DNA of 50,392 nucleotides from a virus (IMGVR_UViG_3300037847_004028:1-50392), one strand, 5' to 3'; shown: positions 5,723 through 23,034, numbered from the stretch's first letter. A program made the numbers and translations. The notes: a model not told the origin generated them from the letters alone.

Positions 5723-6103
5723 ATGGAATATAAAGACATAGCACAAAAAGGTATTTACAAAGCAAAAAGAAGTATTAATAATGCTGAAAGAATTATTAAA
5801 GAAAAAGAACGTAAAGAAAAAAACTTAGAGGATATCAATGCTTTTTTATCATTAAAAAGATTAGAAAATGAAAATTTAAAAGATTTTGAAACTAGACTAA
5901 ATGATATAAAAGCAGATGCAAGTTTTGATAAACTGTTTGAAGATAAAAGTACTAGGTCTGCATATAAAGATGGATTTTTATCTACTAAAGAAGGTTTACA
6001 AATAAAAATAGAAGACATTGAAAAAATACGTCAATTTAGAAAAATGAGTACAAATCCCGTTGTAAAAGAAATAACACAATTATTGTTAAAGGAAGGAAAT
6101 TGA
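5723..6103 (+). CDS. Hypothetical protein (probable ejection-module protein)
   Basis: 126 aa, helical, Cys-free, AAGGAAGG SD. Confidence 0.6.
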   Translation: MEYKDIAQKGIYKAKRSINNAERIIKEKERKEKNLEDINAFLSLKRLENENLKDFETRLNDIKADASFDKLFEDKSTRSAYKDGFLSTKEGLQIKIEDIEKIRQFRKMSTNPVVKEITQLLLKEGN

Positions 6104-6105
6104 TT

Positions 6106-6852
6106 ATGGTTGATTTATACGGAAATAACTTAGAAGAAGAGTTAAAAGATATGGGTTCTCCGTTTAAACAAGAAGGTAATGGAGTAACAGGTGATATGAG
6201 AAATCCAAGTAATCGAAAGTATAATTCTTTATTTGATAATTTTGTTAAAGAAGATGGTAGTTTAGATTATGTATCTACAGGATTAGGAGTTGCACAAGCT
6301 GGTTTAATTACATCTCAAATGTTTGATGGTAGTTATGATAAGACAATCAATAATCTTCAAGACGCATTAGGCAATTTGCAAACTGCTAAATCAAATATAA
6401 GCTCACAATTAAATAAAAATTTAACTGAAGCAAGAAGCGATTTAAGCGATTTAAATACATTAACTAGTCTAAATTTAATGCAACAAAATAAATCTCAGTT
6501 TAGACAACTTGATAATGTAAATAGTGATTTTAATATGGGTAGAATAGAATCAATGAAAGATGATTTGCTTTCTAATATTAATAATAGATTAAAAAATCAA
6601 TTTGAGCAAAATCAAATGAAAACAGAAAAAATATTAGAAAAAAATATAAATGATGCTAAATCTAGTATTACAAAAGTAGATGCTAGTATGGATATGATTA
6701 AGGATGAAATATCACAAGTGAAAGAAGCAAAAGATAATAGATTAAGAAATACTCTTACAGATTTAACTGCTCTTGCTTCTACATATTATGATCCAACAGG
6801 AATATCTGCAGGTATAATAAGAAGTACAAAATTTAAAAATAAATATTCATAG
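6106..6852 (+). CDS. Putative DNA ejection/pilot protein
   Basis: Gly/Ala segment STGLGVAQAGL then a long coiled coil; Cys-free; position after the nozzle. Confidence 0.55.
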   Translation: MVDLYGNNLEEELKDMGSPFKQEGNGVTGDMRNPSNRKYNSLFDNFVKEDGSLDYVSTGLGVAQAGLITSQMFDGSYDKTINNLQDALGNLQTAKSNISSQLNKNLTEARSDLSDLNTLTSLNLMQQNKSQFRQLDNVNSDFNMGRIESMKDDLLSNINNRLKNQFEQNQMKTEKILEKNINDAKSSITKVDASMDMIKDEISQVKEAKDNRLRNTLTDLTALASTYYDPTGISAGIIRSTKFKNKYS

Positions 6853-6860
6853 GAGTTGTT

Positions 6861-8150
6861 ATGAACCTACAAAATATGATACAAAGACAAGTAGGAATTG
6901 AACAAGCTAAAAAAGAAGCTAATAAAGTAGGAAGCGTAACTGCAAATGACGTTATTAATCTTGCTACAACTAGCGATAGGTTATTAAGAGAATCTATTAA
7001 TACTGCTTTTAAAAATGCTCAAGAATTTCCAACATCAGAAAATTTACAAAAACAAATTGAAGATTTATCTACTTTTAAAGAACAAGCTATGTTACCTGCG
7101 ACTAAGATTGCATTTGATATGGGTATTAAGAATTTGCAAGATTATAAATTGATGCAAGAAACAAGAACTAAGAAAGGAATGGAACTTTTTACTAGTGCTA
7201 GAAATCTTGATACAGATGATTTAGAAAGTATTACTTCTTTAAGAAGAGATACCGATAGTGCATTTGCTAATCAATTAATTGGAAATAAACAATATGAAGC
7301 TATACTTGATATAACAGAACCTAAATATAAAGAAGCAGATAGTAGATTAGATTTCGCTAAAGAGTTTGCAGCAGTACAAAGGTTTGATGAAGTATTTGAA
7401 GAAAGTGGTACTCAAGGGGTAAATGAATTAATCTATAAAACATTTACAGAAACTGAAGACCCAAATACACTTACTAGATTAGCACCTTTTGCTAAAAGTT
7501 ATGTTGAAAGTGTTAATGCTAAAATAGAAGCTTTTCAAGAAAATCAAGAAGATGCACAAGAAATGCAAATGTTTACACTTGCATCACAAGCAAAAGAATT
7601 TTACGAAAATATACAACAACAAACACAAGGTGATACAAAAGGTAATCCTATTGCTGGGCAAGGTCATGCAAACAAATATCGCAGTAATTATGTATTAAAA
7701 AATACAAATAAAGGTTCATTTAATGAAAAATACTTTATGAAAGGTGCTGGTGTAGAATCGTTTAATTTTGATGCTTATTATGATGATGCATTACAGACTA
7801 TGAAAGCTTTGTTTATAATTGATGAAAAATTAAACATAAGTAAAAGTGCTAAAAAGAATTTAGATACTATGATGGACAAATCTAATCCAATGCATTTTGA
7901 TGTTGTTAGAAACATGTTAAATAATGCAATTAAAGAAATTGATGCTATTAAAATAGAAGACCCAAAGGATTTTGCATATGATCCATTAAAAGCAACTTTT
8001 GTAGAACTGGGAAAAGTAATTGATTTATATCAAAATAATAGAAAAGCAATGGGTGGTACGGCTCCTGTACAAACAGATACAGGTTCATCATATATGACTC
8101 CATCTTTTCAAGTTCCTGATTATTTAAATAATACAAGTCCACAAGAATAG
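6861..8150 (+). CDS. Putative internal virion/ejection protein
   Basis: 429 aa, helical, Cys-free; AGGAG SD; between the pilot-like gene and the giant protein. Confidence 0.55.
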   Translation: MNLQNMIQRQVGIEQAKKEANKVGSVTANDVINLATTSDRLLRESINTAFKNAQEFPTSENLQKQIEDLSTFKEQAMLPATKIAFDMGIKNLQDYKLMQETRTKKGMELFTSARNLDTDDLESITSLRRDTDSAFANQLIGNKQYEAILDITEPKYKEADSRLDFAKEFAAVQRFDEVFEESGTQGVNELIYKTFTETEDPNTLTRLAPFAKSYVESVNAKIEAFQENQEDAQEMQMFTLASQAKEFYENIQQQTQGDTKGNPIAGQGHANKYRSNYVLKNTNKGSFNEKYFMKGAGVESFNFDAYYDDALQTMKALFIIDEKLNISKSAKKNLDTMMDKSNPMHFDVVRNMLNNAIKEIDAIKIEDPKDFAYDPLKATFVELGKVIDLYQNNRKAMGGTAPVQTDTGSSYMTPSFQVPDYLNNTSPQE

Positions 8151-8158
8151 GATATTAA

Positions 8159-11100
8159 ATGCCACAGTTAGATGCTATATATAGACGAAAAAATAGATTA
8201 GTAGAACAAGTACCTGGCTCTAGTCAAGAAACGTTAGGTGTAGAAACTGCTGAACCAGAAGTAGATGTTATTCGTTTTGACCCTGACTTAGAGTATGGCT
8301 CAGAAAAAAATAAAATATCAGCGTATAAATCATATTTTGATGCAATAAATATGGTATTAAAAAATGAAAAAATACCTCCTGTAAACTTTAATCACCCTAC
8401 AACATTCTTATTAAATAAGACTGAATCAAGTAAAAACCTTGATATGTATAATGTATATCGTGACCAAATGGAAAAAACACTTCGGTCTAATTTTTTGTGG
8501 AATGATAATGTACCATTAAATAAACAAGAACAAACTATAGATGCATGGACAGATGAAATCTATGGTCTTACTAAACATACACAAAAGTTTTTAAATGGAT
8601 ATGATATATCAGAAGATGGTAAAAAAGCTATTTACGAAATAACTAGAAATCAAATACGTAAAACATCTCCTACTATATTTGCATGGGCTGGAGAAGAATA
8701 TAATCAATTTCAAAATTCTAAAAGAGATGGTCTTATTAAAACTAGTAAACAAGCTGAATCATCATTTTATGAAGGGTTAGGTGCATTAGGGATAGAATCT
8801 GTATTGGGAAGAGATGTAAAACAATATGCTGACCAAATGAGATTAGAAGCTGAAAGTATATCAGAAGCACAAGGATATGGTGCTATGACTACAGGAGAGC
8901 TTTTTGGTATAGGTGGTGTTGAAGGTGTTGCTAAAGGTCTTACTAATATTTTATATAATGCATATCAATCTTTACCATATCAAGTTCCAAGTTTAGCTAC
9001 ATCATTAGTAGCAAGAGGTTTAAGTAGTAATCCTTTTACATTTGGTGCTGGTCTTGGTCTTTCTTTAGGTGCTGGTGGTATTATGGAAACTGGTTCATTT
9101 TTATATGAAACGCAAAAAATGTATCATCAGTTAAAATCACAAGCATTTCGTTCAAGAGAAATACTAATGAATCCTGAACATCCTGATTATAACCCAGAGT
9201 TATTTAGAAAATTATTTTCTATAGAAATGAGTGATGGCAGTCGCAAAGCATTAGACTTGGTAACAGATTTAGAAATACGACAAATGTCTGAGGGATTATC
9301 AAGAGTGTATGGTGGTTTAAGTACTGCAGTTGAAGGTTTAAGTTCTTTTGCAGAAAAAAACATATTTGGCAAAATAGGGTCAGGTATGATAAAAGGAATG
9401 AAAAATAATAATAAATCTGCAGTTAAAGCAGTATTTAAAAGTTATTTTAGAAAACCTTTTGTTTCTACATTTCTTGAAGGCGGTACAGAAGCTACTCAAC
9501 AAGGTATTTCCGAAGCATTAAAATATTATAATGTACCTGAATATTCTATTAGTAAAGGAGCAATAGCAGAATCTTTTGCAATAGGTGCAATTTATGGAGC
9601 AAGTTTTTCAGGAGCTGGTGCATTAGGAAGAAAAGCTGTTGATATGTACTCAAACAAAAGAGGTGATTTTAATCTTTCAGAAGAACAAGCATCTAGGTTA
9701 ACACAAACAGATAAAGAACGTAGCAAAATAAGACCATATGATAATGATATTATTCTTGGTACAAACAATGCAGGGTATATAGAACAAATAGCAAAACAAT
9801 ATGATATATCTGCTGATGAAGTAGTGCAAAGACAAAATGATCTTGGTCAAATGGATAAGCTTACTGCTAAAAATAAAAAGATTATTGCTAATGCTAATCC
9901 ACAAATATTTGAAAAATATGGTTGGACAAATATTTACAAAACTTTTGCAAAACAACAAAAGAAAACAGTTGTACAAAAACAAGGAAAAACAGTAAGTAAA
10001 GTTGCTAAGAAAACTCCTTCTAAAAGAATAAGTGGACAACCCGAAATGAGTCCCGAAGCAATTATTCAACAAGCAATGCAGTTTAACTTTGATGATTTAC
10101 CTAGTGGAATGCCATCGCAAATAGACCCTGATGCTCAAGCTGGATTAGATATTTTTGATAACGGTAATGAAATGAATATTGACCTAGTTATTGAACAAGA
10201 ATTAAGGTCACAAATTGAGTTTACAAAAAAGAATACTACGCTTACAAGCAATGAAAAAAGAGTAAAATTAAAAGAATTACAATCAAAGTTAGATAAAGCT
10301 ACACAGTCTCTTAAACAACCAGCTAAAGTAAAAAAGAAAATAAAAAAGAAAGTTGAAATAAAACAAAAAACTAAAGCAGTTGTCAAAAAAACATTACAAA
10401 AACCTGATACAATAGAAGGACTTAAAAGAAAATTAAATTATATAAAAACAAATTATGTAGATAATGTAAAAGATAAAAACAGCGATAATTATAAAACTGC
10501 ATTACAAACAGTTAATGAATACCAAAAAAGACTAGAACAATTAGAAAGTAAAACAAAAAAGAAACCTGTAAAAAAACAACAATTTAGTTCTTTTGACCAA
10601 CCTTTAGAACTTCCAAAGGATATACAATTTAGTGAAAAACCAACAGATTATAATGCTGTAAAAAAAATAAGACCAAAATCAAAAAGTTTGCTTAAAGATT
10701 TTAAAGATAGTAAGAAAAAATCTTTTGATGCATATATGTCTCTTGCACCTAGAGTTATCACTAAACCTGAACTTCGTAAATCTCCTATAACACAAGACAT
10801 TTTAATATTAGAAAATGGTAAAGCAATAGGTGAAATAAAAGCTAATGAAAATGAAAAAGGACTTAGAACAGAAAGTTTAATTCTAGGAAAGGGTAAAAAT
10901 GCAATTATAGTACCAAATGTTGTTAGTGTAAATAATATTAATACTCAATTAGATAAATATATATCACCAAAACAAACAAATGTACCTGAGTCAGACCCTG
11001 ATAAAATAGCAGATAGTGAAAAAAGAACAGGTAGTATGAAGGATATTCAAGCTCTTCTTGCAAAGAAAAAAGGCACTAGTCAATTAAACATTTTTGATAA

Positions 11101-14100
11101 ACTTAAAGAAGATGCACCTGATATTGTTAAAGGAGCTACTGGTAAACATATTAATGATTTGTTTAATAAAGGCAATACAGATGATTCAGATGTTTTATTA
11201 AGTGAAATAGAAGATATGCCTAGTATAATTCTTACAGGTAAGCGTAAAAGAGAATTTGACATGATGCAGAACAAACTATGGAATGCAACTAAAAGAGGGT
11301 ATGGTTTAACTGAACTTGATTTTCCTGATTATGTAGATGCATTTAAAAGTTATTGGGGTGCTACAGTATTTAAAGATGGATATGATACTTGGTCACAAGA
11401 AAGGTTAGCTAAGAGTCCAACAAAAACAAGTATTGCAAAAACTATTGGTAAAAAAATGCGAAGCATAGGAGATGTGTTTGCAAATGAACAAGACCTAGAT
11501 AGTGAATTTGATGATGCTTATGATAGTGCAATAGAATATATAAGAGAAAACATTGGTGATGTTAATAGTGATTTAGAATTTAATCAATTAAGTGCAAAAG
11601 ACTTTAGTAGAATAGCAAAAAGTCCTTTTGTTGTATATGATTTTAGTGTTGATGTTGAAAAGCTTAGTGAGATACAAGACATTGCATATACACTTATAGA
11701 AGAAAATGAACAAACTGCTTTTAACGATTTGTTAGAAATTATTAGTACTCCTGAGTTTGATCTTGTAACTCCTGATGGTTTAACATTAGCTGAACTTGTA
11801 GAAAGAAACGATAATGCTAGGCAGTTATTTAGAAGGTATTACAATTCTATACATCCTAGTAATACTGGTTCAGTAAATAAAGGTGTAGAAGGTGAGATAA
11901 TCGAATACGAAGCAAGACTTTCTACTGCTTCAAATAGTTTAGAACCTACACTTAGAGATGGTAAGCTAGTATATCCTATCCTTGATTTTAGAGCAACTGG
12001 TGAATCTAGTCTTAATGGTCAAACAAGACCAGAGGTAGGTGTAAAAAGACATTACTTGAGATATGCACAGGATAATGGCTCTGTCTTTGCTATGCTTAAA
12101 AACAAAGATATATATGTAAGTTATAAAGAAAATAAAATATATGGATTCTTAAAAACACCACAGTTAATGAACTTGTATAAATACAAGCTAGTTGATAATA
12201 ATCTCGTACCAATTGCATCTCGTGGTGAAGATGGTAATCTTATTATGGCTGCTATAACAGATAAAGTAAAAAATGCTAGTAAGGATATAGAAACATTTGC
12301 AATAGAAGAAATACAGCCTTATAAAAAATTTATGAATACAAATAAAAGCAAATGGGAAACTGTAAATAATATATTTGGACCCTTGCTAAGTCAAGACAAT
12401 ATGACTACAAAAGAAAGTGAGTATTTTGATTTTGTATTTGATGGTGATTACAATACATATAGACAACATGTAATAGCAAGGCATTATGCATTAAAAGATT
12501 TGTTTGGCTCTGATTATATCTTTATGAAGCCAGAGACTTTAATGAAAAGAATTAAAATACCATTTACTCCTGTGCAAACAAGTCCTTCACTTCCTCCTAG
12601 AAAAGTAATGTTCTTTGATTCTAAAAATGCGACAATAGAATATAAATCTACTCGTGTTGATGGAGATGATAAAATTAAGAAAGTAAAACTGCAACAAGCT
12701 ATAGATGGAGAAATGCAATATATAGGTGATGGTACTACACTTACATCGGGTAATGTGTTTACAGAAACATATCCTGAGCATTTTGGTACTCCTGAAAATG
12801 CAACAAGAGCTAAAACAGTTCATTACTATAAAAGAGGTGAAGATGTTCATATGGCTAAACACCAAGAAATGACATTGTTTTTACCTGAGGGAGAAAGTGC
12901 AGTATTAAAAGTAAATAACGAACCTTATGCTTATTTTGTAAGAGAAGGAAATAATGTAAATATTTATGATATGGAAAATAATCCTATCGATAATCTTATG
13001 TCTAATGATGAAGCTAAAGTAAGAAGTGGTGAATTACTTAAGGATGGAGTAATGCATGAAATAGCTGGTGAGTCTATAGGTATGGTTACATTTACAGATA
13101 GGTATCAAAAGAATACTAGCATATTTAGTGGGCAATTAAGTTATTACTTTGATGATCCAAGATTTCAAGAACTTATAATGGATAAGTTTGAAAATATAAA
13201 TCAAGGTACATTCTCTCCTAAAGCATTAGAAGCTACATTAAGAGCAATCTCTGAAAATGGCGAAAGAATGGATGCAATTATTAAAAACTTTTCTAATCGT
13301 TATGTAGATGTAATACCGCAAAATGTTGAAGAACTAGCAGAATTAGGTGCTGGTAAACATCCAGTAAATAGTGGATTTTTTAAAGAGACAATGAAGAATA
13401 AGTTTTTAAAACCTATGGTAGATTTTAAGATGAAAGGTTCTCACTTAGATTTTCGTGCTGACTACAGAGGATTAGTAAATCAAGACGAAACTATCATCGG
13501 ACCAAACAATGGTTTAATAAAAGAAATTACAAGAATAGCAGAGCTACCTAGTAAAATGAATACTAATGCTAAAATAGATGCAGTTAATGAGTGGCTTAGT
13601 AAAAATAAATTTTACACAATGATTGTAAGGCATCCTGTCGCAAGTAGTGTAGGATTTGGTTTATATAGAATTAAAAAGATTGAACCTTCAATAGGTGATT
13701 CATTTATATTGCATCCTAAAGAAGTTAAAGAGCGTTTTGAAGGTGACCATGACCATGACAGAGGACATTTAGTATGGCTTGACCAAGAGTTTTATAATCA
13801 ACTTAAACCACATGAAGTCCCTACTAGTGGATTAGGATTAAGTCAATTTAAAAAGTTTGATGAAGAAAGTACCTTAGAAAACCTTAGTGGTACAGCAGAG
13901 ATGATTGAAAGAATGACTTATGGTCAAACTGCTATTGGAGAAGTAGTGAACATTACTAGATATGCAGGTGCATTAAATGCAATGTTTGGTAAGGATGGTT
14001 TTATGCAATATACAGTTAACGGTAAAGTAATTAAACTCAAACCAAGACCATTTAATATGCAAGTAATGGATAATGATATTGTTTATAAAGATGGTAGAAG

Positions 14101-15196
14101 GTGGAAAGGTAAAGTAAAAGACCTTTTAAGATTATATCTGCAAGCAGCAGTTGACCACCCTAAAGTATTATTACTTGATAGATGGAATTATAGTAGAGAT
14201 AAATTAATTAACTATTTGTTCTATGACCCAGCATCTCCAAATGCTCCTTTAAACGCTACATTAGTCGAGTTTCTTAAAAAAGGTATATTGGATATACTTA
14301 ATATAAATGGACAAGTAGATAATCATCGTGTCTCTGGTGGTAAGTCTGTAAAGTTTGATGAATTGTTAAATAAAAGTGAAGAATACAATGAATTTGTTAA
14401 TGATAGAGCAGAGTATTTAAGAAATGACTTATTAAGAAAAGAAGAAGCATATTATGATAATGTAAATAGTAACATTGAATCTGCAACACGATCACAGGAT
14501 ATGGTTTTATTTGGTGAAGCAAAGTTTGCAAAAAACAGTAATCAACCTATGAGTTTACAAGAAAAGATTACAATCAAATATGCAGAAATGTTAGATAAAA
14601 TACCTGGTAAGCGTAATAGATTTTTTAACACACCTCGTGAATTAAGTCTGCCTGTACATAGAACTGCAGTTTACAATATATACCCTGAATTGTTTGAGCA
14701 AATTACAGAAATGGCTGGAGATGTAGATGCATTACCTCAAGAGGGAATAACGTATGCAAGTAATATTTCTAATAGCTTAACTAAACTATATGAGTCTAAA
14801 AAAAATAAAAACGAAACTGGTAGTACAATAAGTTTTATAGAAAGACTTACTCCTAAAACATGGGATTACAATAAACAATTTGTTGAGTTTTATAAGTTTT
14901 GGTCTAAAAAATATGAAGCATTATCTCCACTAGATAGAAAGTTAGCTACAATACAATATTTATTTGGAACTGTTGGTGGTAATAAAAGAGTACTAAAACA
15001 AGATTTAAATACATTACCTCCTATAAAACGTAAAGGCGGTACAACATTAGACCCAGAAATAATGGCAATATATTTTAAAGAATATAATAGTTTATTAAAC
15101 AAATTTGAAAAAGATACTAGCATATTGACTGAGCTTAGAAAATCACCAAAGATGTCAATGGCTGAATTAAGAAAGGACTTAGGTTGTGGCAAGTAA
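8159..15196 (+). CDS. Large ejection protein containing a single-chain two-barrel (DPBB) virion RNA polymerase
   Basis: In order: KRIKIPFTP, GDG (D1524), K1552, K1567, GQL, RHP (R1824), EGDHDHD (1863-1867), GQTAIGEVVN, LQAAVDHPK; Gly/Ala-rich N-terminal membrane segments. Confidence 0.8.
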   Translation: MPQLDAIYRRKNRLVEQVPGSSQETLGVETAEPEVDVIRFDPDLEYGSEKNKISAYKSYFDAINMVLKNEKIPPVNFNHPTTFLLNKTESSKNLDMYNVYRDQMEKTLRSNFLWNDNVPLNKQEQTIDAWTDEIYGLTKHTQKFLNGYDISEDGKKAIYEITRNQIRKTSPTIFAWAGEEYNQFQNSKRDGLIKTSKQAESSFYEGLGALGIESVLGRDVKQYADQMRLEAESISEAQGYGAMTTGELFGIGGVEGVAKGLTNILYNAYQSLPYQVPSLATSLVARGLSSNPFTFGAGLGLSLGAGGIMETGSFLYETQKMYHQLKSQAFRSREILMNPEHPDYNPELFRKLFSIEMSDGSRKALDLVTDLEIRQMSEGLSRVYGGLSTAVEGLSSFAEKNIFGKIGSGMIKGMKNNNKSAVKAVFKSYFRKPFVSTFLEGGTEATQQGISEALKYYNVPEYSISKGAIAESFAIGAIYGASFSGAGALGRKAVDMYSNKRGDFNLSEEQASRLTQTDKERSKIRPYDNDIILGTNNAGYIEQIAKQYDISADEVVQRQNDLGQMDKLTAKNKKIIANANPQIFEKYGWTNIYKTFAKQQKKTVVQKQGKTVSKVAKKTPSKRISGQPEMSPEAIIQQAMQFNFDDLPSGMPSQIDPDAQAGLDIFDNGNEMNIDLVIEQELRSQIEFTKKNTTLTSNEKRVKLKELQSKLDKATQSLKQPAKVKKKIKKKVEIKQKTKAVVKKTLQKPDTIEGLKRKLNYIKTNYVDNVKDKNSDNYKTALQTVNEYQKRLEQLESKTKKKPVKKQQFSSFDQPLELPKDIQFSEKPTDYNAVKKIRPKSKSLLKDFKDSKKKSFDAYMSLAPRVITKPELRKSPITQDILILENGKAIGEIKANENEKGLRTESLILGKGKNAIIVPNVVSVNNINTQLDKYISPKQTNVPESDPDKIADSEKRTGSMKDIQALLAKKKGTSQLNIFDKLKEDAPDIVKGATGKHINDLFNKGNTDDSDVLLSEIEDMPSIILTGKRKREFDMMQNKLWNATKRGYGLTELDFPDYVDAFKSYWGATVFKDGYDTWSQERLAKSPTKTSIAKTIGKKMRSIGDVFANEQDLDSEFDDAYDSAIEYIRENIGDVNSDLEFNQLSAKDFSRIAKSPFVVYDFSVDVEKLSEIQDIAYTLIEENEQTAFNDLLEIISTPEFDLVTPDGLTLAELVERNDNARQLFRRYYNSIHPSNTGSVNKGVEGEIIEYEARLSTASNSLEPTLRDGKLVYPILDFRATGESSLNGQTRPEVGVKRHYLRYAQDNGSVFAMLKNKDIYVSYKENKIYGFLKTPQLMNLYKYKLVDNNLVPIASRGEDGNLIMAAITDKVKNASKDIETFAIEEIQPYKKFMNTNKSKWETVNNIFGPLLSQDNMTTKESEYFDFVFDGDYNTYRQHVIARHYALKDLFGSDYIFMKPETLMKRIKIPFTPVQTSPSLPPRKVMFFDSKNATIEYKSTRVDGDDKIKKVKLQQAIDGEMQYIGDGTTLTSGNVFTETYPEHFGTPENATRAKTVHYYKRGEDVHMAKHQEMTLFLPEGESAVLKVNNEPYAYFVREGNNVNIYDMENNPIDNLMSNDEAKVRSGELLKDGVMHEIAGESIGMVTFTDRYQKNTSIFSGQLSYYFDDPRFQELIMDKFENINQGTFSPKALEATLRAISENGERMDAIIKNFSNRYVDVIPQNVEELAELGAGKHPVNSGFFKETMKNKFLKPMVDFKMKGSHLDFRADYRGLVNQDETIIGPNNGLIKEITRIAELPSKMNTNAKIDAVNEWLSKNKFYTMIVRHPVASSVGFGLYRIKKIEPSIGDSFILHPKEVKERFEGDHDHDRGHLVWLDQEFYNQLKPHEVPTSGLGLSQFKKFDEESTLENLSGTAEMIERMTYGQTAIGEVVNITRYAGALNAMFGKDGFMQYTVNGKVIKLKPRPFNMQVMDNDIVYKDGRRWKGKVKDLLRLYLQAAVDHPKVLLLDRWNYSRDKLINYLFYDPASPNAPLNATLVEFLKKGILDILNINGQVDNHRVSGGKSVKFDELLNKSEEYNEFVNDRAEYLRNDLLRKEEAYYDNVNSNIESATRSQDMVLFGEAKFAKNSNQPMSLQEKITIKYAEMLDKIPGKRNRFFNTPRELSLPVHRTAVYNIYPELFEQITEMAGDVDALPQEGITYASNISNSLTKLYESKKNKNETGSTISFIERLTPKTWDYNKQFVEFYKFWSKKYEALSPLDRKLATIQYLFGTVGGNKRVLKQDLNTLPPIKRKGGTTLDPEIMAIYFKEYNSLLNKFEKDTSILTELRKSPKMSMAELRKDLGCGK

Positions 15197-18100
15197 TAAA
15201 TGTAGCGATTTAGAACAAGATGATGTACTGGTAGCAGATTTACATAATGCCTCTAATTTAGAAAGTGAACTAAATAAGAAACAATTGTATGACCCTGATG
15301 TTTTACCTGTATTTAAAAAAATAGATCAATCTATTAAAAATACAATAGACAGAATGAAAAAATACTCAGGTGAGTATGACCCTTCTAAGTTTACGTTTAA
15401 TGAAAAGTATCTAAGAAAACTAATTAAAAGAAGAGAAGCAACAACAGACCAAGTAGAAAAACAAACTATTATAACTGCATTACAATCACAAGCAGATGCT
15501 GACCCAGGTTTTTTAGAAGCATTAAAAGAAAGTGCATATGAAATAACTAAGACAGAACAATACAAAGAGCAAAGAAAATACAAAGAAGCTAAAGTAGACC
15601 CTGTTACAAAGTTACCTAATTTTTATACACTTAGTTTACAAACGCTTAGAGTATTGTATCACGACTTAGCACCTTTAATGGATGTAAATGAAAATGGAGA
15701 TGTGCTTGGTAGGTTAGGTTCAAACATTGCATATGAGTTTGCATTACCTAAAACAATATTTAAAAGAGCAAAAGACACAGAAATATTTAAATACAAACAA
15801 GCATTGTATGATTATCGTAATGAAATGAATAGAAGGGTTTCTAGTTACTCTGGTCCGATAGACGTTCCTTCCAGTCAAGAAAGAGAAAGAGTACACCCTG
15901 ACACAGATATTCCTGTTATAGATAATATAAGAAGAAGTAAGGCAGGCTATGCTGATATACTTGACAATATAAATACAACAGTAAATGCATATCTAAAAGC
16001 TAGGGGCATGGTAGGAGATGGTAGTGATCAAGTACATGAATTAATTACAGATTTAATGCATGGCAGAGCGTTTATAAGGATGGATAAAAAAGGATTTGGT
16101 AAAGTATATCGATATGAAAACTGGGTTCCTACTGAAAGAAGATATAAAGAAAGTGGAGATAGAATATTTAGATGGAAAGGGAAAGAGTTTAACGAACAAC
16201 AACTTGAAAAATATAATAAACAATATGGTAATAAGTTTGATTTTACTGAATATGTAGTGCCTTATCAGTTTGGTAATAGACCACAAATAGATTTTGGTGC
16301 AGAAATGAAAAACGGAATGTCTATGGCTAATTCTGTAGACTCGTTATTAGAGCATTTAGACATTATATATAGGGAAGGTTTTGATGATGTAAAGACTGAC
16401 CTTACAAACGTAATAGAAGAAATGAATACTACTTTAAATGAATACAAGAAAAAAGGAATACAGATGCCACCTGAATTATTTCAGGAACTTGTTACAGATA
16501 AAGTAAATCAAGAAGAATTTTTAGATTTATTAAATAAAGATATATCTAATAGGAATGAAGAAAGAAATGAAAGACTAGTTGCTGGACAAAGAATGCAAGC
16601 TGTAGGAAAAGTACAAAAAAGAAAACAACATGCATTAGAAGATGGTACAATAATTATAGCAAGAGATTATAAAAGGTATTATCCTAAGATGTATTTTAGT
16701 GCAGATGTAGGTGAAGGAATTAATCAAGCTTTAATAAATATAGATAGTGAATTATTAGCATTACAAAATGCAATGGTAATTGACCCTGACCTTATTGATG
16801 AAAATACAGCAGCAAACTTAGATAAAGATTCTGATAGATTCAATGAACTAGTAAAAGGTAAAGCACATTTAGAACAAGCTTTAGTAAGATACTTAGATTT
16901 AAATGGGCAAACGTTAAAAGAAGATGAAGTAGCAGAGTTAATGACTCCATTTGAAAAGCATTTTAAACCTGTTACTAATTTTTTACCTTATGATTTAGTA
17001 AGAAAAGATAAAAGCGTAACTCCTGATTATTTTAATAGAATATCTAAAACAGTTGTTAAAGCACAATTGTTATCAAAGTTATTATCTGCTTATGGCAGGA
17101 TACAGAAACCAAGCTTTCAAAACTATTTAGTTAATAGATATAGGATTGCATGGAATAGTCCTAAATCAGAAGGTAGTTTTTTAGGAACAAGATTTGACAT
17201 GCCTTCATTAGCTAAAAAATTACATGTAAGTGAAGATGGCATTGTAAACCTATTAAATAAAATGAGGTCAATACAAACTTTTCAAGTATTAGGAGGGTGG
17301 TCTTCGGGATTTGGTCAGCTTACATCTATGGCTAACAAAATGATGGAACTTGGATATGATGCAACTATAACTGCATATCAAGATTCTCAGCTAACAGAAA
17401 ACAAAGCATTGATTGTAAAGAGTGGTATACTATCATTTGAAGATATGGTTGAAACGCATCTTCTTATGGAAGGTAATAGTGCTGAAGTAAAAAGAGTACA
17501 AGAACTTAAAAAGAAATATAAACAAGAATTAGAATCAGGAAAGATTCAAGGATTCGCTAAAGCGTTGTTAAGAACGTTAGAAAAAAATAATTCTGCTTGG
17601 GCTGAAGTACCAAGATCACTGGCAAACTATGCAATTACTGGAGAGTTTCCTATATATAGTACTGATAGTAAAACAGTAAAGAATGCTAAGTTTGTAGCAA
17701 ACTTTAGAAAATACGTTAGTATGTCATTAACAGAAAAAATACTTCGTAGTACATCTTTTATGATGGGTGTTAATTGGAGTATTGAATCTGGATATGCACA
17801 AAGTAAAGATGACCCAGTAGCTACAGAGTTTGGTAAACGTTTTGTACAAGAAATGGATTTTACACTTGGCAATGAAGGTGTAGGAGATTCTTTTGGTAAT
17901 TCATTAATGCAATGGTTTAATCAAGTAAGGGTTTGGAGTACACAAAGAATGGCTTATGGCAAAGATGCATACAAACGAGCATGGTTATCTGAGTATGCAG
18001 TAGACCCTGATCAAAGTAAAATTACTAGAAGTGCAAAAGCATCTATAAAATTTGCTAATGCATTAATGTTGGAAGCTAGTGGAAATGGTCTTACTGTTGC

Positions 18101-18824
18101 TAGTACGTTAGGAGGGGCGGCAGTTGCAGGTTCATTACTTGCTGGATATAGTGGCGTACTTGGTCCAATAGGAGCATTAGCTGGAGGTGTTGCAGGGTAT
18201 GGAACATCTTATTTAAGTAAAAAGATAACAAATCCTATAACGCATTTAGAAGAACGAAGAAAAGCTTTGCGTTTAACAAACCCTAGTACTTCTAAGGCTA
18301 GTCAAATGCTATTATTTCATGGTGCAACATCAGCATTATATGATTTTGTATTATACAATTTTGATTTTAGTTATGCTAAAGAAGGTGCATTAGCATCAGG
18401 TGTGTTAAAGTTTACTAGAAGATTTGCAGGTAATCAATCGTTTACAAGGCTTGGTAGTGGGTTTACTTCACCATTAATGAGAAGCACAATGATGAGTATG
18501 CACTTATTATATAAAGCTCTTAATGAAGAAGAAGATGTAGAAGCTTTAGATTTTGTTAAGTTGTTTGGAAGTTTCGCAGGGGTAGGATATATGCAATTTG
18601 CATATTTACTTATGGATGCATTTTATGATGAGCAGTCATTAGCAAAACATAAAAATAAAAATGCTCGTAATGGTATACGTCAATTTATTAGATTAAATAC
18701 ACCTAATATAGTTCCAAGCGAATTACTGGGTTCATTTGGTGCAGATTTTTTTGACATTACTGAAGCTGGTGCAAAAGTATTTGATGATATAAATAGATAT
18801 GGAATGGGATTAGGTAAAAAATAA
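15186..18824 (+). CDS. Large internal virion/ejection protein with Gly-rich transmembrane hairpin
   Basis: GTG start with AAGGA SD; 1212 aa; TLGGAAVAGSLLAGYSGVLGPIGALAGGVAGYG segment; last gene of the + block. Confidence 0.65.
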   Translation: MASNKCSDLEQDDVLVADLHNASNLESELNKKQLYDPDVLPVFKKIDQSIKNTIDRMKKYSGEYDPSKFTFNEKYLRKLIKRREATTDQVEKQTIITALQSQADADPGFLEALKESAYEITKTEQYKEQRKYKEAKVDPVTKLPNFYTLSLQTLRVLYHDLAPLMDVNENGDVLGRLGSNIAYEFALPKTIFKRAKDTEIFKYKQALYDYRNEMNRRVSSYSGPIDVPSSQERERVHPDTDIPVIDNIRRSKAGYADILDNINTTVNAYLKARGMVGDGSDQVHELITDLMHGRAFIRMDKKGFGKVYRYENWVPTERRYKESGDRIFRWKGKEFNEQQLEKYNKQYGNKFDFTEYVVPYQFGNRPQIDFGAEMKNGMSMANSVDSLLEHLDIIYREGFDDVKTDLTNVIEEMNTTLNEYKKKGIQMPPELFQELVTDKVNQEEFLDLLNKDISNRNEERNERLVAGQRMQAVGKVQKRKQHALEDGTIIIARDYKRYYPKMYFSADVGEGINQALINIDSELLALQNAMVIDPDLIDENTAANLDKDSDRFNELVKGKAHLEQALVRYLDLNGQTLKEDEVAELMTPFEKHFKPVTNFLPYDLVRKDKSVTPDYFNRISKTVVKAQLLSKLLSAYGRIQKPSFQNYLVNRYRIAWNSPKSEGSFLGTRFDMPSLAKKLHVSEDGIVNLLNKMRSIQTFQVLGGWSSGFGQLTSMANKMMELGYDATITAYQDSQLTENKALIVKSGILSFEDMVETHLLMEGNSAEVKRVQELKKKYKQELESGKIQGFAKALLRTLEKNNSAWAEVPRSLANYAITGEFPIYSTDSKTVKNAKFVANFRKYVSMSLTEKILRSTSFMMGVNWSIESGYAQSKDDPVATEFGKRFVQEMDFTLGNEGVGDSFGNSLMQWFNQVRVWSTQRMAYGKDAYKRAWLSEYAVDPDQSKITRSAKASIKFANALMLEASGNGLTVASTLGGAAVAGSLLAGYSGVLGPIGALAGGVAGYGTSYLSKKITNPITHLEERRKALRLTNPSTSKASQMLLFHGATSALYDFVLYNFDFSYAKEGALASGVLKFTRRFAGNQSFTRLGSGFTSPLMRSTMMSMHLLYKALNEEEDVEALDFVKLFGSFAGVGYMQFAYLLMDAFYDEQSLAKHKNKNARNGIRQFIRLNTPNIVPSELLGSFGADFFDITEAGAKVFDDINRYGMGLGKK

Positions 18825-18901
18825 TCTGTTACAATTAGGAATGTATGCTTAAAATATGTTGCACTCACTTATGTGTGTGTTGCTTAAACAGGTCTATTTA
18901 A

Positions 18902-18949
18902 GAGGGAGCCACTCAGTCCAAATTACTTTGGTAATTGAGTGACTCTCTC
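18902..18949. terminator. Long hairpin between convergent gene blocks (possible bidirectional terminator)
   Basis: gagggagccactca 18902-15 pairs with tgagtgactctctc 18936-49 (12/14 Watson-Crick); no clear adjacent U-tract. Confidence 0.45.
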
Positions 18950-19037
18950 AAACCCCACGAAAACGCCCTAACGCTCTCGATATCATTTTACTTATTTTTT
19001 ATTTGTTTTACAAGCTTTTTACACTTGATTTACAAAG

Positions 19038-19217
19038 TTATATAGTATTTTCATCTACTTTTTTTAAAATATGATAAGGAAGTACTTCTCTTATCTCAGG
19101 TATTAATTCATTATCAGGATAATTAACTGTTAACCAATGTAATATTGTTGCCATTATTTCTTCGTATTTAGCGTTTTTTGCGATTTCTTTTGCGACTTGC
19201 TCCATTGACATTGTCAT
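19038..19217 (-). CDS. Hypothetical 59-aa protein
   Basis: AAGGAG SD; MTMSMEQVAKEIAKNAKYEEIMATILHWL...ENTI*. Confidence 0.6.
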   Translation of the reverse strand: MTMSMEQVAKEIAKNAKYEEIMATILHWLTVNYPDNELIPEIREVLPYHILKKVDENTI

Positions 19218-19530
19218 TGTTTAACTCCTTTACTTTTATATAACGTTCTAGCCACGAATCAAAAGGTTCTACTACATAAGGTATTCCTCTATCTTCTTTT
19301 ATAACTTGTATGTCTACTTCTTCAGATGGTATCATCCATTGTGCAATCTTTTTACGACATTTAGCTTGTACTTTAATTACTTTATCTATTAATAAATCAA
19401 CTTCTTCATGCCAGCCCAATGATTGACCATTACTACCCCATGCTCTTTGACATTCTAAACCCATATCTTTTGTCATATCTCTTAATAAATATTCAAAGCG
19501 ATTACCTTTTGCTTTTGATTTGTTTGCCAT
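19168..19530 (-). CDS. Holliday junction resolvase, Hjc-like PD-(D/E)xK
   Basis: SKAKGNRFE...RAWGS...VDL...VQAK; start MANK with GGAGA SD. Confidence 0.8.
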   Translation of the reverse strand: MANKSKAKGNRFEYLLRDMTKDMGLECQRAWGSNGQSLGWHEEVDLLIDKVIKVQAKCRKKIAQWMIPSEEVDIQVIKEDRGIPYVVEPFDSWLERYIKVKELNNDNVNGASRKRNRKKR

Positions 19531-19648
19531 GATCTCTCCAATCCTCAAATATATTTATACTTAAAACAAATAACACACTACCTATACCAATACATAATAT
19601 GCTAAAAGACATAATTACTATGTTGATTATCCATTCTGCTAATATCAT
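19502..19648 (-). CDS. 48-aa single-TM membrane protein
   Basis: AAGGAG SD; MILAEWIINIVIMSFSILCIGIGSVLFVLSINIF...KR*. Confidence 0.6.
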   Translation of the reverse strand: MILAEWIINIVIMSFSILCIGIGSVLFVLSINIFEDWRDHGKQIKSKR

Positions 19649-19670
19649 TTTATACTCCTTATTTAAACAT

Positions 19671-19731
19671 GCGAAGGGTCAAACTGGCGAGACTAAAACC
19701 AGACCAAGGAGGAGGAATCCTGACCCCTCGC
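19671..19731 (-). ncRNA. Structured intergenic element with CCUCC loop
   Basis: 11-bp closing stem with a G-U on the - strand; inner CUGG/CCAG stem and GGA-UUCCUCC-UCC hairpin. Confidence 0.5.
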
Positions 19732-19738
19732 TGTTATG

Positions 19739-19954
19739 TTATTTACATTTAGGACATGGTTGTTTCTTTTTTCCATAAGTAGGAAAATCATGTAAGTATA
19801 TTATTTTATGAGTGCCTCTTAGATATTCTTTTGTCTCTATACTTTCCCAGCATTGATTGCAAGATTTACAGTAGTTTATATTTCTATCTGCTCTTCTTGC
19901 ATCAGCTTTCCAACCATGTCTTTTTAATGCAAGTGCTTGTTTATACTTAATCAT
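19739..19954 (-). CDS. Small Zn-finger protein
   Basis: CKSC...CPKC; overlaps the dnaB stop. Confidence 0.65.
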   Translation of the reverse strand: MIKYKQALALKRHGWKADARRADRNINYCKSCNQCWESIETKEYLRGTHKIIYLHDFPTYGKKKQPCPKCK

Positions 19955-21335
19955 TTAATATATCAAACAATCTTTCTCCTGTTTTTTCTACAGGAAAAGC
20001 TTCAGGAATTATGACTTCAGTTTTGTTATGACGCACTATCATGTTTTCATGAAACTGACATTTATTACCATTAAATCCCATTGTTATCATACCACCTGTG
20101 CCATAACGCACCTTTGCAGCAACAATCTGATTTTGTTCGGGACCAAGTTCTGAATCAGCATATTTATCTTTGTATTCATAGTATACAAAAAGAATATTCT
20201 CAGCAACTTGCTCAATGCTACCACCTTCAGATAAATCAGACATTTTTGGTACTTTGTCAATACGAGCTTCAATGTTACGATTGAGCTGACTTACAAGAAT
20301 AGGTATGCAGTTATATCTTTTTGCAGTTTCTTTATAAGAACGCATGATTTCCTCAATTTCAAAACGTCTGCCTTCATTCTGTGATTTAACACGAATTAGT
20401 TGTATGTAATCATCAAGAATAATATCTGGTTTATATTTACTTATTACTGCATTACTATCATTAAGAGTGAATAGTTTGTCAAACATAAACAATTGGTCTT
20501 TGTATTGTTTAAAGTTTTTCATAGCAACATTCAAATGATTTATTGTTTTCTCATCCATATTCCTACCACCCATACGAATATTAGAGTAGTATAATTCTTT
20601 ATGAGAAAGAACAAGTAATTTCTTCATCATTTCTTTGTTATTCATCTCACGATTAATCATCATTACTTTCAAACCTTGTTGAAGTAGATTGTAGCATAGA
20701 TTAACAACAAGTGTTGTTTTGCCATGACCAGGTCTGCCACCAATCACAGTGATCTCACCACGAGTCATACCACCAGCCATTTTATTAAGACTATCAAAAC
20801 CATATTTAACAAGATTAACAGATTCATAAATACTATCTTCTGTTTCTGAAATAAGGTCTTCAAGGTCAAACTCTTGTCCTGTAGTTATACTTTGAAACTC
20901 TGAACTAACTTTATTTACATCATCTACAAGAGCATTAAATTCTTTATTATCTTTGAATGCATTGTCTTGTATCTTCATTGTAGACTTAATTAGTTTACGT
21001 TTGAGACTTTTTTCTGCAACGATTCTAGCATAATCTTTCATCTGATGATTCATACCTGTTTCAAGTAAACCAGTAAGAAAGTATGCATTAATATCATATT
21101 TCTTTTTGTCATTCTCAGTAAGAGATGCCATAATAGTAATAGGGTTTATTTCGCTTTCTTTCTTTTCTAGTTCTGCAATCTTTTGATAGATTCTTCTATT
21201 AGTCTCATTATAAAACATCCTTGAGTTTGTAATGTATTTTTTACATTCTTCTAAGGTTGTGTTGTCATTCATAATAATACCTAGTACTGCTTCTTCAGCT
21301 TCTAGGCTTTGTGGCATAAGTTGTAAATCACTCAT
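19947..21335 (-). CDS. dnaB: Replicative DNA helicase DnaB
   Basis: PQSLEAEEAVLG, Walker A GGRPGHGKT, DYIQL, SQLNR, DLSEGGSIEQVA. Confidence 0.95.
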   Translation of the reverse strand: MSDLQLMPQSLEAEEAVLGIIMNDNTTLEECKKYITNSRMFYNETNRRIYQKIAELEKKESEINPITIMASLTENDKKKYDINAYFLTGLLETGMNHQMKDYARIVAEKSLKRKLIKSTMKIQDNAFKDNKEFNALVDDVNKVSSEFQSITTGQEFDLEDLISETEDSIYESVNLVKYGFDSLNKMAGGMTRGEITVIGGRPGHGKTTLVVNLCYNLLQQGLKVMMINREMNNKEMMKKLLVLSHKELYYSNIRMGGRNMDEKTINHLNVAMKNFKQYKDQLFMFDKLFTLNDSNAVISKYKPDIILDDYIQLIRVKSQNEGRRFEIEEIMRSYKETAKRYNCIPILVSQLNRNIEARIDKVPKMSDLSEGGSIEQVAENILFVYYEYKDKYADSELGPEQNQIVAAKVRYGTGGMITMGFNGNKCQFHENMIVRHNKTEVIIPEAFPVEKTGERLFDILND

Positions 21336-21546
21336 TTATTTTCCTCACATTTGTTTCTGCACCGATTCTAGTTTTTTCTTTTTTAACTGTAGGTTCTCCA
21401 TTTGCATCGAACCCTTTAGCATTATCAAGCATTACAAGACAACCAAACTCACTTTTAGTCAGAAGTGTGCCTGTAGTATCTTGTCCTTCAATGACAAACT
21501 TGTCACCTTCAACAAGGTCAGCTAGATACAGTGTTTTTTTCTTCAA
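21328..21546 (-). CDS. Hypothetical protein
   Basis: 72-aa ORF overlapping neighbours in the operon. Confidence 0.65.
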   Translation of the reverse strand: MKKKTLYLADLVEGDKFVIEGQDTTGTLLTKSEFGCLVMLDNAKGFDANGEPTVKKEKTRIGAETNVRKINE

Positions 21547-21715
21547 TTAAATCACCTCTTATTTTTGTTAGGTCTTTTAATAATTTTTCAAAAGCATTTC
21601 TATAGTTTATATTATTAAATAGCCTTGAACTTGATATCCCTAACTGTAAAGCGATGATAAGCCAATTAATTTCAGATATATTAAATCTGATATTTGCGTT
21701 TGCTTCTTTACTCAT
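21518..21715 (-). CDS. Hypothetical protein
   Basis: 65-aa ORF in the operon. Confidence 0.6.
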   Translation of the reverse strand: MSKEANANIRFNISEINWLIIALQLGISSSRLFNNINYRNAFEKLLKDLTKIRGDLIEEKNTVSS

Positions 21716-21728
21716 AGTCTACTTTCTA

Positions 21729-21890
21729 TAAACAAACGACCATTATAGATTGTTATAATGACGCCAACCATTTATTAACACAATAGCAGTCCTGTATACC
21801 ACATACTAAAGGACACATTTATCAGCCTCCGATGACTTTTTTAAAAATCGTTTGTCAAAAGAGACAGACAATCAAATGGTCGTTTATTTA
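21729..21890 (-). ncRNA. Multibranch structured intergenic element (~160 nt)
   Basis: 16-bp closing stem 21729-44/21875-90 with one G-U on the - strand, plus gattgt/acaatc, enclosing several small hairpins. Confidence 0.55.
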
Positions 21891-21955
21891 TTTTTTATTA
21901 TTTGTGTGTTGCTTTCGAGTGGAGTCCAAATCCACGTTTCGAAAGGGTTACTAAT

Positions 21956-22852
21956 TTAGCCAAATAACATATTATATGCACGAAGTTTCAGCATGTTACC
22001 ACTACCAAACATTGCATAACCATTAGCTTTTCTTGTTTCAGAACTGCCATGATCTACAAGGTCTGTTACTGCATTAAACATACGCCAGTTACCATGTTCT
22101 ATTTCAGTATATTTCTCATAAGAATCCTCTAGTTTTTCTACAAGATTTATACCTCTAGTGCTATACATAGGAGGAGTCCATGTTGTTTGCTTTATACCAT
22201 TACTATCTGTTTTAGTAATAGGTCTTGGCTTTTCTTCTAATCTCCATAGTTTAGTACCAAACTCATGCGGTGATTTGTAGCTTCGTACAAGTGCTTTTTC
22301 TTTGATTGCATAAGTGTTTAGCCTTTGTATGTTAGCTATTTCACGAATGTTATCAGCAAATGCTTTAACTCTATCTTCACCAGACATTGTATGTTTTACG
22401 CTTAATGCAGTTCTAGCATTTTTATCTCTATTAGCAGCAGTCCATGTATTTGAACACCATATGCGAATCATACCAGCAAAAAGCTTAAATGCAAGTCCAC
22501 CATTATGTGAGTTTGCAAGAGTTACATAACCTTTTACATCACCTTGTTTATCGCCAGGGATAATATCTTCTACAAACTCATTGTTCTCCATTTGAACAAA
22601 TACTTCAGCTCCGTTCTTAAATGAACCAGCTTTCGTTACGACACAACCATATTCTTGTTCAAGTCTATCAACTGTATTCATAAAACTTGTATTAGTAATT
22701 GGAAAGTATCTTTTTGATGCGACATGTAAAGTTTCTTTCGTATCATCTCTAAATATCTCATGATAGTTTGATATTATTTTACCTCCAGCATCATATATTG
22801 GAGCTGTTTTTACATCCCAATCAAATGGGTAGTCTTCTGTTGGTTTAAACAT
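21956..22852 (-). CDS. DUF932 family phage/plasmid protein
   Basis: FRDDT...LHVASKRYFPITN, AGSFKNGAEVFV, LANSHNG, RIWCSNT, KHT, WRMFNAVT. Confidence 0.85.
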   Translation of the reverse strand: MFKPTEDYPFDWDVKTAPIYDAGGKIISNYHEIFRDDTKETLHVASKRYFPITNTSFMNTVDRLEQEYGCVVTKAGSFKNGAEVFVQMENNEFVEDIIPGDKQGDVKGYVTLANSHNGGLAFKLFAGMIRIWCSNTWTAANRDKNARTALSVKHTMSGEDRVKAFADNIREIANIQRLNTYAIKEKALVRSYKSPHEFGTKLWRLEEKPRPITKTDSNGIKQTTWTPPMYSTRGINLVEKLEDSYEKYTEIEHGNWRMFNAVTDLVDHGSSETRKANGYAMFGSGNMLKLRAYNMLFG

Positions 22853-22854
22853 AG

Positions 22855-23034
22855 TTATTTTCCTCTCGCTTTATCTATTTGGTTTTGTATTGCTATATCC
22901 TCTAGTCTTTCGGCTATTTTTTGTTCTTTAATATCTAAATCTAGCCAGGGATTATTCATTGCATGTTCGAAATAGTCATCTTCGTTTATGTTTTCTTCTT
23001 CCAAGTCCAATGCAAGGTTTTTTACTGCACCCAT
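22855..23034 (-). CDS. Acidic 59-aa hypothetical protein
   Basis: GGAGG SD; MGAVKNLALDLEEENINEDDYFEH...ARGK*. Confidence 0.65.
   Translation of the reverse strand: MGAVKNLALDLEEENINEDDYFEHAMNNPWLDLDIKEQKIAERLEDIAIQNQIDKARGK

Follow-up and report, generated by a model that had tools for sequence, protein, structure and literature searches.

Paired terminal cysteines on consecutive cargo proteins of a 50-kb podovirus and of crAss-like phages, and the disulfide tether they may form

The viral record IMGVR_UViG_3300037847_004028 (positions 1-50392), which is the whole of the window analysed here (50,392 base pairs, estimated 93% complete, 32% G+C), contains a block of five co-directional open reading frames (ORFs) at 5723-18824, whose last two genes encode a predicted two-barrel RNA polymerase (RNAP), here protein A, and a second large protein, here protein B. 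Translation of the five ORFs gives 4362 residues in total with exactly two cysteines, C2343 at the C-terminal tip of A and C6 at the N-terminus of B. This tail-to-head pair is kept among relatives of the window, and a like arrangement recurs on consecutive cargo proteins of crAss-like phages. Judging from comparative sequence evidence, we consider it reasonably probable that terminal disulfides join such cargo proteins into one ejection thread, which the host cytoplasm would take apart by reduction. An earlier reading made from the sequence alone (the sequence-only reading) had suggested an inter-chain disulfide after noticing only two cysteines in these five proteins, one in a C-terminal GCGK with its codon overlapping the next GTG start and one at position 6 of a 1212-residue protein; the count, both residues and both codons are borne out by translation. 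The features concerned are as follows.

5723..6103, + strand: putative small ejection/cargo protein, first gene of the block, 126 residues, no cysteine
6100..6852, + strand: putative ejection/cargo protein, 250 residues, no cysteine
6861..8150, + strand: putative ejection/cargo protein, 429 residues, no cysteine
8159..15196, + strand: protein A, 2345 residues, one cysteine (C2343)
12026..15193, + strand: predicted two-barrel RNAP region of protein A, residues 1290-2345 (AlphaFold2 model and Foldseek)
13745..13759, + strand: DxDxD motif of protein A, D1863/D1865/D1867 in EGDHDHDRGH, putative catalytic metal site, invariant in alignments
15185..15187, + strand: Cys2343 codon of protein A, TGT, third residue from the C-terminus in ...LGCGK
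15186..15196, + strand: overlap of the gene A end with the gene B start, 11 nucleotides
15186..18824, + strand: protein B, 1212 residues, one cysteine (C6)
15201..15203, + strand: Cys6 codon of protein B, TGT, in MASNKCSD

Two cysteines at a gene junction

The cysteine share of the block is 0.046%, compared with 0.588% (58 of 9863 residues) in the 23 other ORFs of the window. At the rate of those ORFs about 26 cysteines would be expected in the block (binomial P(<=2) = 2.4e-9), and base composition alone predicts about 105. By cysteine frequency the block fits a cysteine-suppressed ejection operon as described for Schitoviridae. In the Schitoviridae study, N4 gp50 and DEV gp71 are without cysteine, and cysteine suppression is conserved over the ejection operon, which is thought to reflect passage through the periplasm (PMC11445570); the remark in the sequence-only reading that the N4 virion RNAP is cysteine-free, and that this has been related to periplasmic passage, finds support there. 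None of the five block proteins has a match by sequence in Pfam, PHROGs or solved PDB chains. Hydropathy windows (>=1.5) reveal no transmembrane segment, and the HExxH motif is absent, in the five proteins and in a 1119-residue protein encoded upstream of them. The three small proteins have cysteine-free counterparts in relatives: that of 126 residues at the equivalent position in L002, L007 and L009, that of 250 residues in L002 and L004-L009 (with ends ...KNKYS or similar), and that of 429 residues, as proteins of 416-459 residues directly upstream of protein A, in L002 and L004-L010.

The pair was followed through 16 loci, namely the window and 15 further viral contigs obtained from protein and locus searches, which fall into seven groups with less than 40% mutual identity in the polymerase region; the most distant locus is 21% identical to the window. 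Protein A (2253-3405 residues, cut at the contig 5' end in two loci) has exactly one cysteine, followed by 1-3 residues, in all 16. The gene directly downstream encodes a protein of 1078-1400 residues with a cysteine at position 4-8, again in 16 of 16; this is the sole cysteine of B in 15 loci, and L013 has a second one at position 33. Summed over the loci, A holds 16 cysteines in 41,205 residues and B 17 in 19,098, or 33 in 60,303 together. Among control ORFs of at least 300 residues in the same loci, a cysteine occurs in the last four residues in 0 of 53 and at residues 2-8 in 4 of 53. Cys2343 is an invariant column in alignments of 10 and 16 sequences of A, and Cys6 is one of only 13 invariant columns in a 16-sequence alignment of B, where the flanking N-terminal stretch is otherwise unconserved.

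The C-terminal cysteine also persists at much greater depth. A profile built on the last 1056 residues of A, searched against 1.84 billion cluster representatives, gave 446 matches. The best 150 of these 446 include 61 proteins of at least 2000 residues, of which 59 carry a cysteine no more than three residues from the C-terminus, 56 contain a single cysteine and none has a cysteine in its first ten residues; the 61 proteins contain 63 cysteines in 166,451 residues in total. The two exceptions are P0142, which is C-terminally truncated and ends before the profile end, and P0129, a fusion. When rows were hand-picked by a match reaching profile position 1090 of 1123, 83 of 84 ended with the terminal cysteine, the miss (P0098) being truncated and stopping short of the profile end; P0031, outside this criterion, has the terminal cysteine as well. 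Across the best 150 matches, 116 have a cysteine in the last ten residues, and the other 34 are mostly fragments that were not individually inspected.

In the window, the TGT codon of Cys2343 has two bases in common with the GTG start of gene B at 15186. This GTG is the earliest start codon of its frame and has a Shine-Dalgarno-like site (AAAGGA) 8 nucleotides upstream; the next in-frame start is a TTG at codon 34 without such a site. A TGT-GTG overlap occurs in 7 of the 16 loci, six of them with identical junction geometry, and it could be asked whether the cysteine merely follows from a nucleotide-level constraint such as start overlap or translational coupling, or is a chance placement in cysteine-poor proteins. 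Over the 16 loci, however, the A-B junctions comprise overlaps of 1, 4, 8, 10, 11 and 14 nucleotides and gaps of 9 and 10, and B starts with GTG, TTG or ATG, while both cysteines are always kept; because geometry and start codons vary and the cysteines persist, the cysteines are not a by-product of codon overlap. In PhiCrAssBcn1, DAC15, IAS and cr126_1, described below, the cysteine is kept even with partner genes on opposite strands. As for chance, the probability that two randomly placed cysteines would occupy the final 3 residues of one protein and the initial 6 of its successor is ~2e-6 in the window by itself, and the terminal-cysteine pattern recurs in lineages mutually less than 50% identical. 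The pair is thus neither chance nor a side effect of gene overlap, and we give this explanation almost no credence.

Further comparative evidence comes from P0129, a protein of 3651 residues with an RNAP domain at 1251-2314, a B-family domain at 2941-3504 and no cysteine at all. The assignment of residues 2941-3504 to the B family has an hhalign probability of 98.5% (E 2e-15) and an hmmsearch E of 3.7e-28, and P0129 therefore reads, at the level of sequence, as a natural A-B fusion in which both junction cysteines were lost together. In a fusion the chain is continuous, so that the two cysteines would become dispensable, as a tether predicts. It was the profile search that yielded P0129; a word-index search aimed at longer (fused) relatives of B came back empty. 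The sequence-only reading had looked to two kinds of relatives for confirmation, adjacent homologous genes that conserve the terminal pair and a fused ORF, and both have now come to light.

The polymerase and the same rule in crAss-like phages

Protein A consists of about 1290 N-terminal residues with no recognised fold and a C-terminal two-barrel RNAP. An AlphaFold2 model of residues 1290-2345 (16 sequences; mean predicted local distance difference test, pLDDT, 81.4; predicted template modelling score, pTM, 0.73) has as its top Foldseek match 6vr4_A, the phi14:2 virion RNAP gp66 (E 6e-10, probability 1.0). Further fold matches include QDE-1 (7y7t, 2j7n), RDR2, P74 gp62/P32 gp64 and bacterial beta', and all 28 matches with E<=0.001 are two-barrel or multisubunit-type polymerases, none of them a T7-like single-subunit enzyme. 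The aspartates D1863, D1865 and D1867 are invariant in the 10- and 16-sequence alignments, and the DxDxD motif that they form fits the catalytic site of the two-barrel superfamily. The model accordingly predicts a two-barrel, crAss-like enzyme of the phi14:2 gp66 type, not an N4- or T7-like one. The RNAP label of the sequence-only reading stands, and the kinship to the N4 type that it implied does not, which leaves N4 as an analogy rather than a relative. By sequence, protein A has no Pfam or PHROG match, no PDB match at E<=1 and no tblastn match in 50,697 phage records. Its position beside structural genes and its cysteine depletion suggest that A would be packaged in the virion, ejected and engaged in RNA synthesis from phage early promoters. 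The N-terminal portion of about 1290 residues (8159-12025) diverges faster than the polymerase half and has no known fold or family. The homologue P0010 (3323 residues) is longer in its N-terminal part and has UvrD/PIF1-type helicase Pfam domains there, and in cr50_1 and cr118_1 the fused crAss-like protein bears the annotation helicase/exonuclease V.

The model of protein B is all-alpha (pLDDT 66.3). No match was returned by a fold search with this model at E<=0.001, by tblastn against the 50,697 phage records, or by Pfam, PHROG and PDB sequence searches. Residues 1-6 of B have pLDDT below 50, and Cys2343 of A lies in a low-confidence tail (pLDDT <50 at model residues 1053-1056). Because the terminal residues are of low confidence in both models, both cysteines are predicted to sit on flexible tips, not in a structural core or active site. 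At the other end of B, residues ~967-1200 (18086-18785) form Gly/Ala-rich, low-confidence helices (pLDDT 31-44); this C-terminal fifth might insert in a membrane, yet no window within it reaches a Kyte-Doolittle mean of 1.5.

The fold of A directs the comparison to the crAss-like cargo module, represented by gp67-gp66-gp65 of phi14:2 and gp47/gp49/gp50 of PhiCrAss001. In phi14:2 (NC_021806) the three genes are consecutive, and all are annotated from virion proteomics. Their cysteines are distributed as follows.

phi14:2 gp67: 1797 residues, the only cysteine is the last residue
phi14:2 gp66 (RNAP): 2180 residues, the only cysteines are C3 and C2179
phi14:2 gp65: 1421 residues, the only cysteine is C3

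From sequence, this layout has the signature of a linear three-member chain. Trypsin would release these cysteines in peptides of just 3-8 residues, which standard mass-spectrometry workflows would overlook. The crAss-like module and that of the window are alike in the gp66 fold (6VR4) and DxDxD motif of the C-terminal half of A, in a polymerase gene followed by one for a protein of 1100-1400 residues and preceded by cysteine-free proteins of a few hundred residues, and in the terminal-cysteine rule itself. They differ in that the window has no sequence-level match to any crAss-like phage, a genome of ~50 kb rather than ~100 kb and an SU10-like capsid, and in that its chain would have two members instead of three, with B not detectably related to gp65 and lacking the zincin HExxH.

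The rule was then examined in 13 of the 141 phage records matching gp66, sampled for taxonomic spread (Steigviridae, Suoliviridae, Intestiviridae, Fipvunavirus). All 13 have a C-terminal cysteine on one member and a cysteine at position 3-6 on the next. The C-terminal cysteine lies 0-3 residues from the end except in PhiCrAssBcn1 (8) and cr10_1 (10). The first chain member never has an N-terminal cysteine, and the last never has a C-terminal one in the 12 records in which its end is visible, the cr10_1 record ending earlier. Three-member chains are found in PhiCrAssBcn1, DAC15, cr126_1 and IAS virus, whose first member has its gene on the opposite strand, so that no DNA junction is shared there, and nonetheless keeps its C-terminal cysteine. 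Two-member chains occur in Fpv1, cr55_1, cr118_1, cr50_1, cr10_1 and cr56_1, in which a fused protein of 4400-4950 residues carries the C-terminal cysteine and the next protein has C3-C6. Intestiviridae, represented by the Carjivirus record and cr11_1, show the opposite order: a zincin-annotated protein comes first and bears the C-terminal cysteine, and a polymerase fusion of 4070-4388 residues begins MSC, which in the Carjivirus record (MW067003) requires a shift from the annotated frame opening to the first ATG. The fused proteins of both kinds (4400-4950 residues in the six two-member phages, 4070-4388 in Carjivirus and cr11_1) have no such cysteine pair internally, their internal junctions not being mapped exactly. 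BLASTP of gp65 against the Carjivirus zincin protein gives a weak match around HExxH (E 0.009), so there is weak support for a cysteine placement that follows chain order and not protein family.

Several of these records showed further peculiarities. In MW067003 (L025) the Carjivirus RNAP gene at 10631-22906 is annotated from the frame opening, not from the first ATG, and two annotated thioredoxin genes lie at 25090-25368 and 26088-26357 (- strand), a few kb downstream of the cargo module; they might bear on how the redox state of the proposed links is handled. The gene after the 4460-residue protein of cr10_1 (MKIICPNL..., from ~19770 in MT774382, L030) is unannotated in the public record. 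IAS gp055/gp056 (9414-18396 in NC_049978, L026) appear to be a single gene, that of the middle chain member, interrupted by a run of N. Read with table 11, the cr56_1 cargo genes (916-22894 in NC_055890, L032) show 7-38 in-frame stops, which fits stop-codon recoding in its crAss-like lineage, and the terminal-cysteine rule still holds there.

A disulfide tether and competing explanations

The mechanism that we propose would begin in the released virion, outside the reducing cytoplasm, where the two thiols could form one inter-chain disulfide and make A and B a head-to-tail pseudo-continuous polypeptide of ~3550 residues. Cargo proteins are generally thought to exit the capsid at least partly unfolded through the narrow tail channel. 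Non-covalent contacts would be lost on unfolding, and only a covalent link would couple the exit of one protein to the next; a link at the extreme termini would leave stubs of few residues, so that the joined chain stays thread-like. Host cytoplasmic thiol reductases would finally sever the link and release the polymerase. Elsewhere in the module cysteine is avoided, as in N4-like phages, presumably preventing wrong disulfides in the oxidising periplasm. A comparable principle operates in AB-type protein toxins, where one disulfide holds two chains together while one of them crosses a membrane unfolded, and cytosolic reductases cut the bond and free the active chain. The proposed A-B link would work alike, although the proteins are unrelated and the vehicle would be the phage tail channel; A and B are also separate gene products placed tail to head, whereas the toxin chains usually arise by nicking of one precursor.

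Disulfides and unfolding have both been discussed for crAss001 (PhiCrAss001) virions. According to the structural study, inter-subunit disulfides occur within the capsid as well as the tail (the gp57 dimer, tail hub and ring proteins), the cargo proteins are argued to need partial unfolding for exit through the tail, and reduced and non-reduced mass-spectrometry samples are described (PMC10172136). Inter-subunit disulfide linkage therefore occurs in virion proteins of this lineage, but the bonds reported in that text stabilise a fixed capsid and tail architecture, and none is given for ejected cargo; its main text has no occurrence of 'cysteine' and nothing on cargo disulfides. The text of the Drobysheva preprint states that gp65, gp66 and gp67 are all in virions and form one fused polyprotein in some phages, for which it proposes cleavage; the words 'cysteine' and 'disulfide' do not occur in that text (10.1101/2020.03.07.982082). 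Full-text searches, with supplements and the journal version of the Drobysheva paper outside their scope, found no paper describing terminal cysteines in these cargo proteins, and the terminal-cysteine feature of two-barrel-RNAP phage cargo modules, crAss-like ones included, appears to be unreported.

The lone exposed cysteine at a flexible tip could in principle pair with any nearby thiol. Homodimers, joining A to A by the C-termini or B to B by the N-termini, or a link to another protein such as the portal for packaging or retention, would be further ways to use it; cysteines do occur in the portal and in further structural proteins of the window, and homotypic disulfides are described for crAss001 gp57 (PMC10172136). 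Such bonds leave unexplained why consecutive chain members have matched numbers of C- and N-terminal cysteines, why the first member never has an N-terminal and the last never a C-terminal cysteine, and why both residues were lost jointly in P0129 rather than being retained as internal cysteines. We regard this possibility as unlikely, though it is the leading one among the alternatives to a tail-to-head disulfide.

Only slightly less credible to us is that the two thiols do meet and are bridged by a metal ion or other cofactor, in a non-covalent or coordinate tether. This would give the identical pattern of pairing and co-loss and would function in a reducing or anoxic setting as well. However, a single cysteine on each chain offers just two ligands, neither cysteine is flanked by a conserved His, Cys, Asp or Glu (neighbouring columns are variable), and a coordinate bond would less probably withstand unfolding and tail passage.

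A third possibility is that the cysteines are processing handles, for example in a ligation-like reaction, where the partner's N-terminal cysteine attacks after an N-to-S acyl shift at the C-terminal X-Cys bond, or as recognition sites for the zincin-like protease that crAss-like phages have. The proteins A of the window clade end in Gly-Cys (GCGK, GCG, GCE), reminiscent of Gly-Cys autoprocessing sites, and the cleavage put forward in the text of the Drobysheva preprint (10.1101/2020.03.07.982082) would fit a processing role. Against this, the residue before the cysteine is unconserved (G, N, A, I, V, K, M, E, R, T and S are all seen), only 0-3 residues follow it and there is no Hint/intein-like domain, the partner cysteine is at position 3-8 and not a free N-terminus, and protein B is without an HExxH motif. 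We hold processing to be quite improbable. The alternatives all explain the matched, order-dependent pattern less well than the tail-to-head disulfide does, and the nucleotide-level one is contradicted outright.

Every comparative test available supports the disulfide tether at the level of sequence, the pair being co-conserved and lost on fusion. Several points nevertheless weigh against it. Virions assemble in the reducing cytoplasm and gut crAss-like phages live under anoxia, so that oxidation would have to follow release, and the structural disulfides of crAss001 could have formed during aerobic purification. Internal cysteines are common in gut crAss-like phages (10 in the IAS RNAP, for example), which means that avoidance is not absolute, and in two of the sampled records the C-terminal cysteine stands 8 and 10 residues from the end. 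The lack of a detectable sequence relation between B and gp65 extends to the N-terminal half of A and gp67 (hhalign probabilities <2%), and the cysteine pattern shared by the window clade and crAss-like phages may have come from a common ancestor or have arisen by convergence. Whether mature B contains Cys6 depends on its start codons, which are predictions, and gene position together with the crAss-like homologue suggests that A and B would be packaged in the virion. A complex prediction with the C-terminal 350 residues of A and the N-terminal 450 of B (score 0.02, mark 0.32) was counted neither way.

Crassvirales include the most abundant viruses of the human gut, and the tether may have a wider bearing. 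In its general form, for and against which we see about equal weight, all phages that package a two-barrel RNAP (Crassvirales, Fipvunaviruses and this 50-kb clade) would concatenate their giant cargo proteins via terminal disulfides into one thread of 3,500 to ~6,700 residues. Such a redox-joined 'split polyprotein', ejected N-to-C as one chain and unlinked by host cytoplasmic reductases, would do the work of the single N4 polymerase of 3,500 residues, with gene fusion and cysteine pairs as interchangeable evolutionary answers to the demand for chain continuity. How podoviruses deliver megadaltons of protein in order, including a polymerase far wider than the tail channel, is an open question raised in the crAss001 and N4 structural papers; a covalent, reducible head-to-tail link, if real, would be a simple physical answer, with one thread, one order and release inside the cell. 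It would also explain why the genes are fused in some lineages and not in others, and would link the trio of crAss-like RNAP-associated proteins with the N4 enzyme's three domains. How these three crassvirus proteins correspond to the domains of the N4 vRNAP is described as an open question in PMC13434306.

The comparison with Schitoviridae (N4 and DEV, gp50/gp71, gp51/gp72 and gp52/gp73) shows where the likeness ends. Like these phages, the window would have a giant RNA polymerase that is packaged in the virion and enters the host before the DNA; cysteine is strongly suppressed across the operon in both, and the single N4 virion RNAP of 3500 residues is close in size to A plus B (3557 residues). 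The N4 enzyme is T7-like and single-subunit, however, whereas that of the window is predicted to be two-barrel, and the N4-like proteins are essentially cysteine-free with all domains in one polypeptide, whereas the window splits functions over two proteins with one terminal cysteine each. In practical terms, the terminal-cysteine rule makes it inexpensive to recognise cargo chains, and the order of their members, from the sequences of uncultured phages, and the idea is directly testable in cultured phages (phi14:2, PhiCrAss001, DAC15 and Fpv1).

Genome, lineage and neighbouring genes

Apart from the block, the recognisable genes of the window are the following.

GH108 endolysin
Replication genes: DnaB-like helicase, Cas4-type PD-(D/E)XK nuclease, ParB-like protein
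Small and large terminase
P22-like portal
SU10-like major capsid protein and adaptor
Tail fibre of 2221 residues with an S74 chaperone domain

The window is the near-complete genome of a new ~50-kb podovirus. Because its terminase and capsid have only ~25% identity to any phage in the 50,697-record collection, it represents an undescribed lineage. The GH108 endolysin and the hosts of other phages with a two-barrel RNAP point to a Gram-negative host, probably of the Bacteroidota. No tRNA was found in the window, and no thioredoxin- or Dsb-like gene among its 23 other ORFs.

Upstream of the cysteine-free block, the 1119-residue protein (2198-5557) contains 4 cysteines, and a sub-threshold Pfam hit is its only family match. 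In relatives its counterparts terminate in ...SIVYREKTIK, and the corresponding genes of crAss-like phages carry the annotation 'stabilization' or 'virion structural' protein. Two distant relatives have a cysteine-rich protein just upstream of the cysteine-free block (L016 at 1140-2318, 12 cysteines in 392 residues; L017 at 64-1665, 26 in 533), so that cysteine content changes sharply inside a single module. Elsewhere in the window, a 167-residue ORF antisense to the portal gene (36670-37173, - strand) has 13 cysteines (7.8%) and is most likely a shadow ORF.

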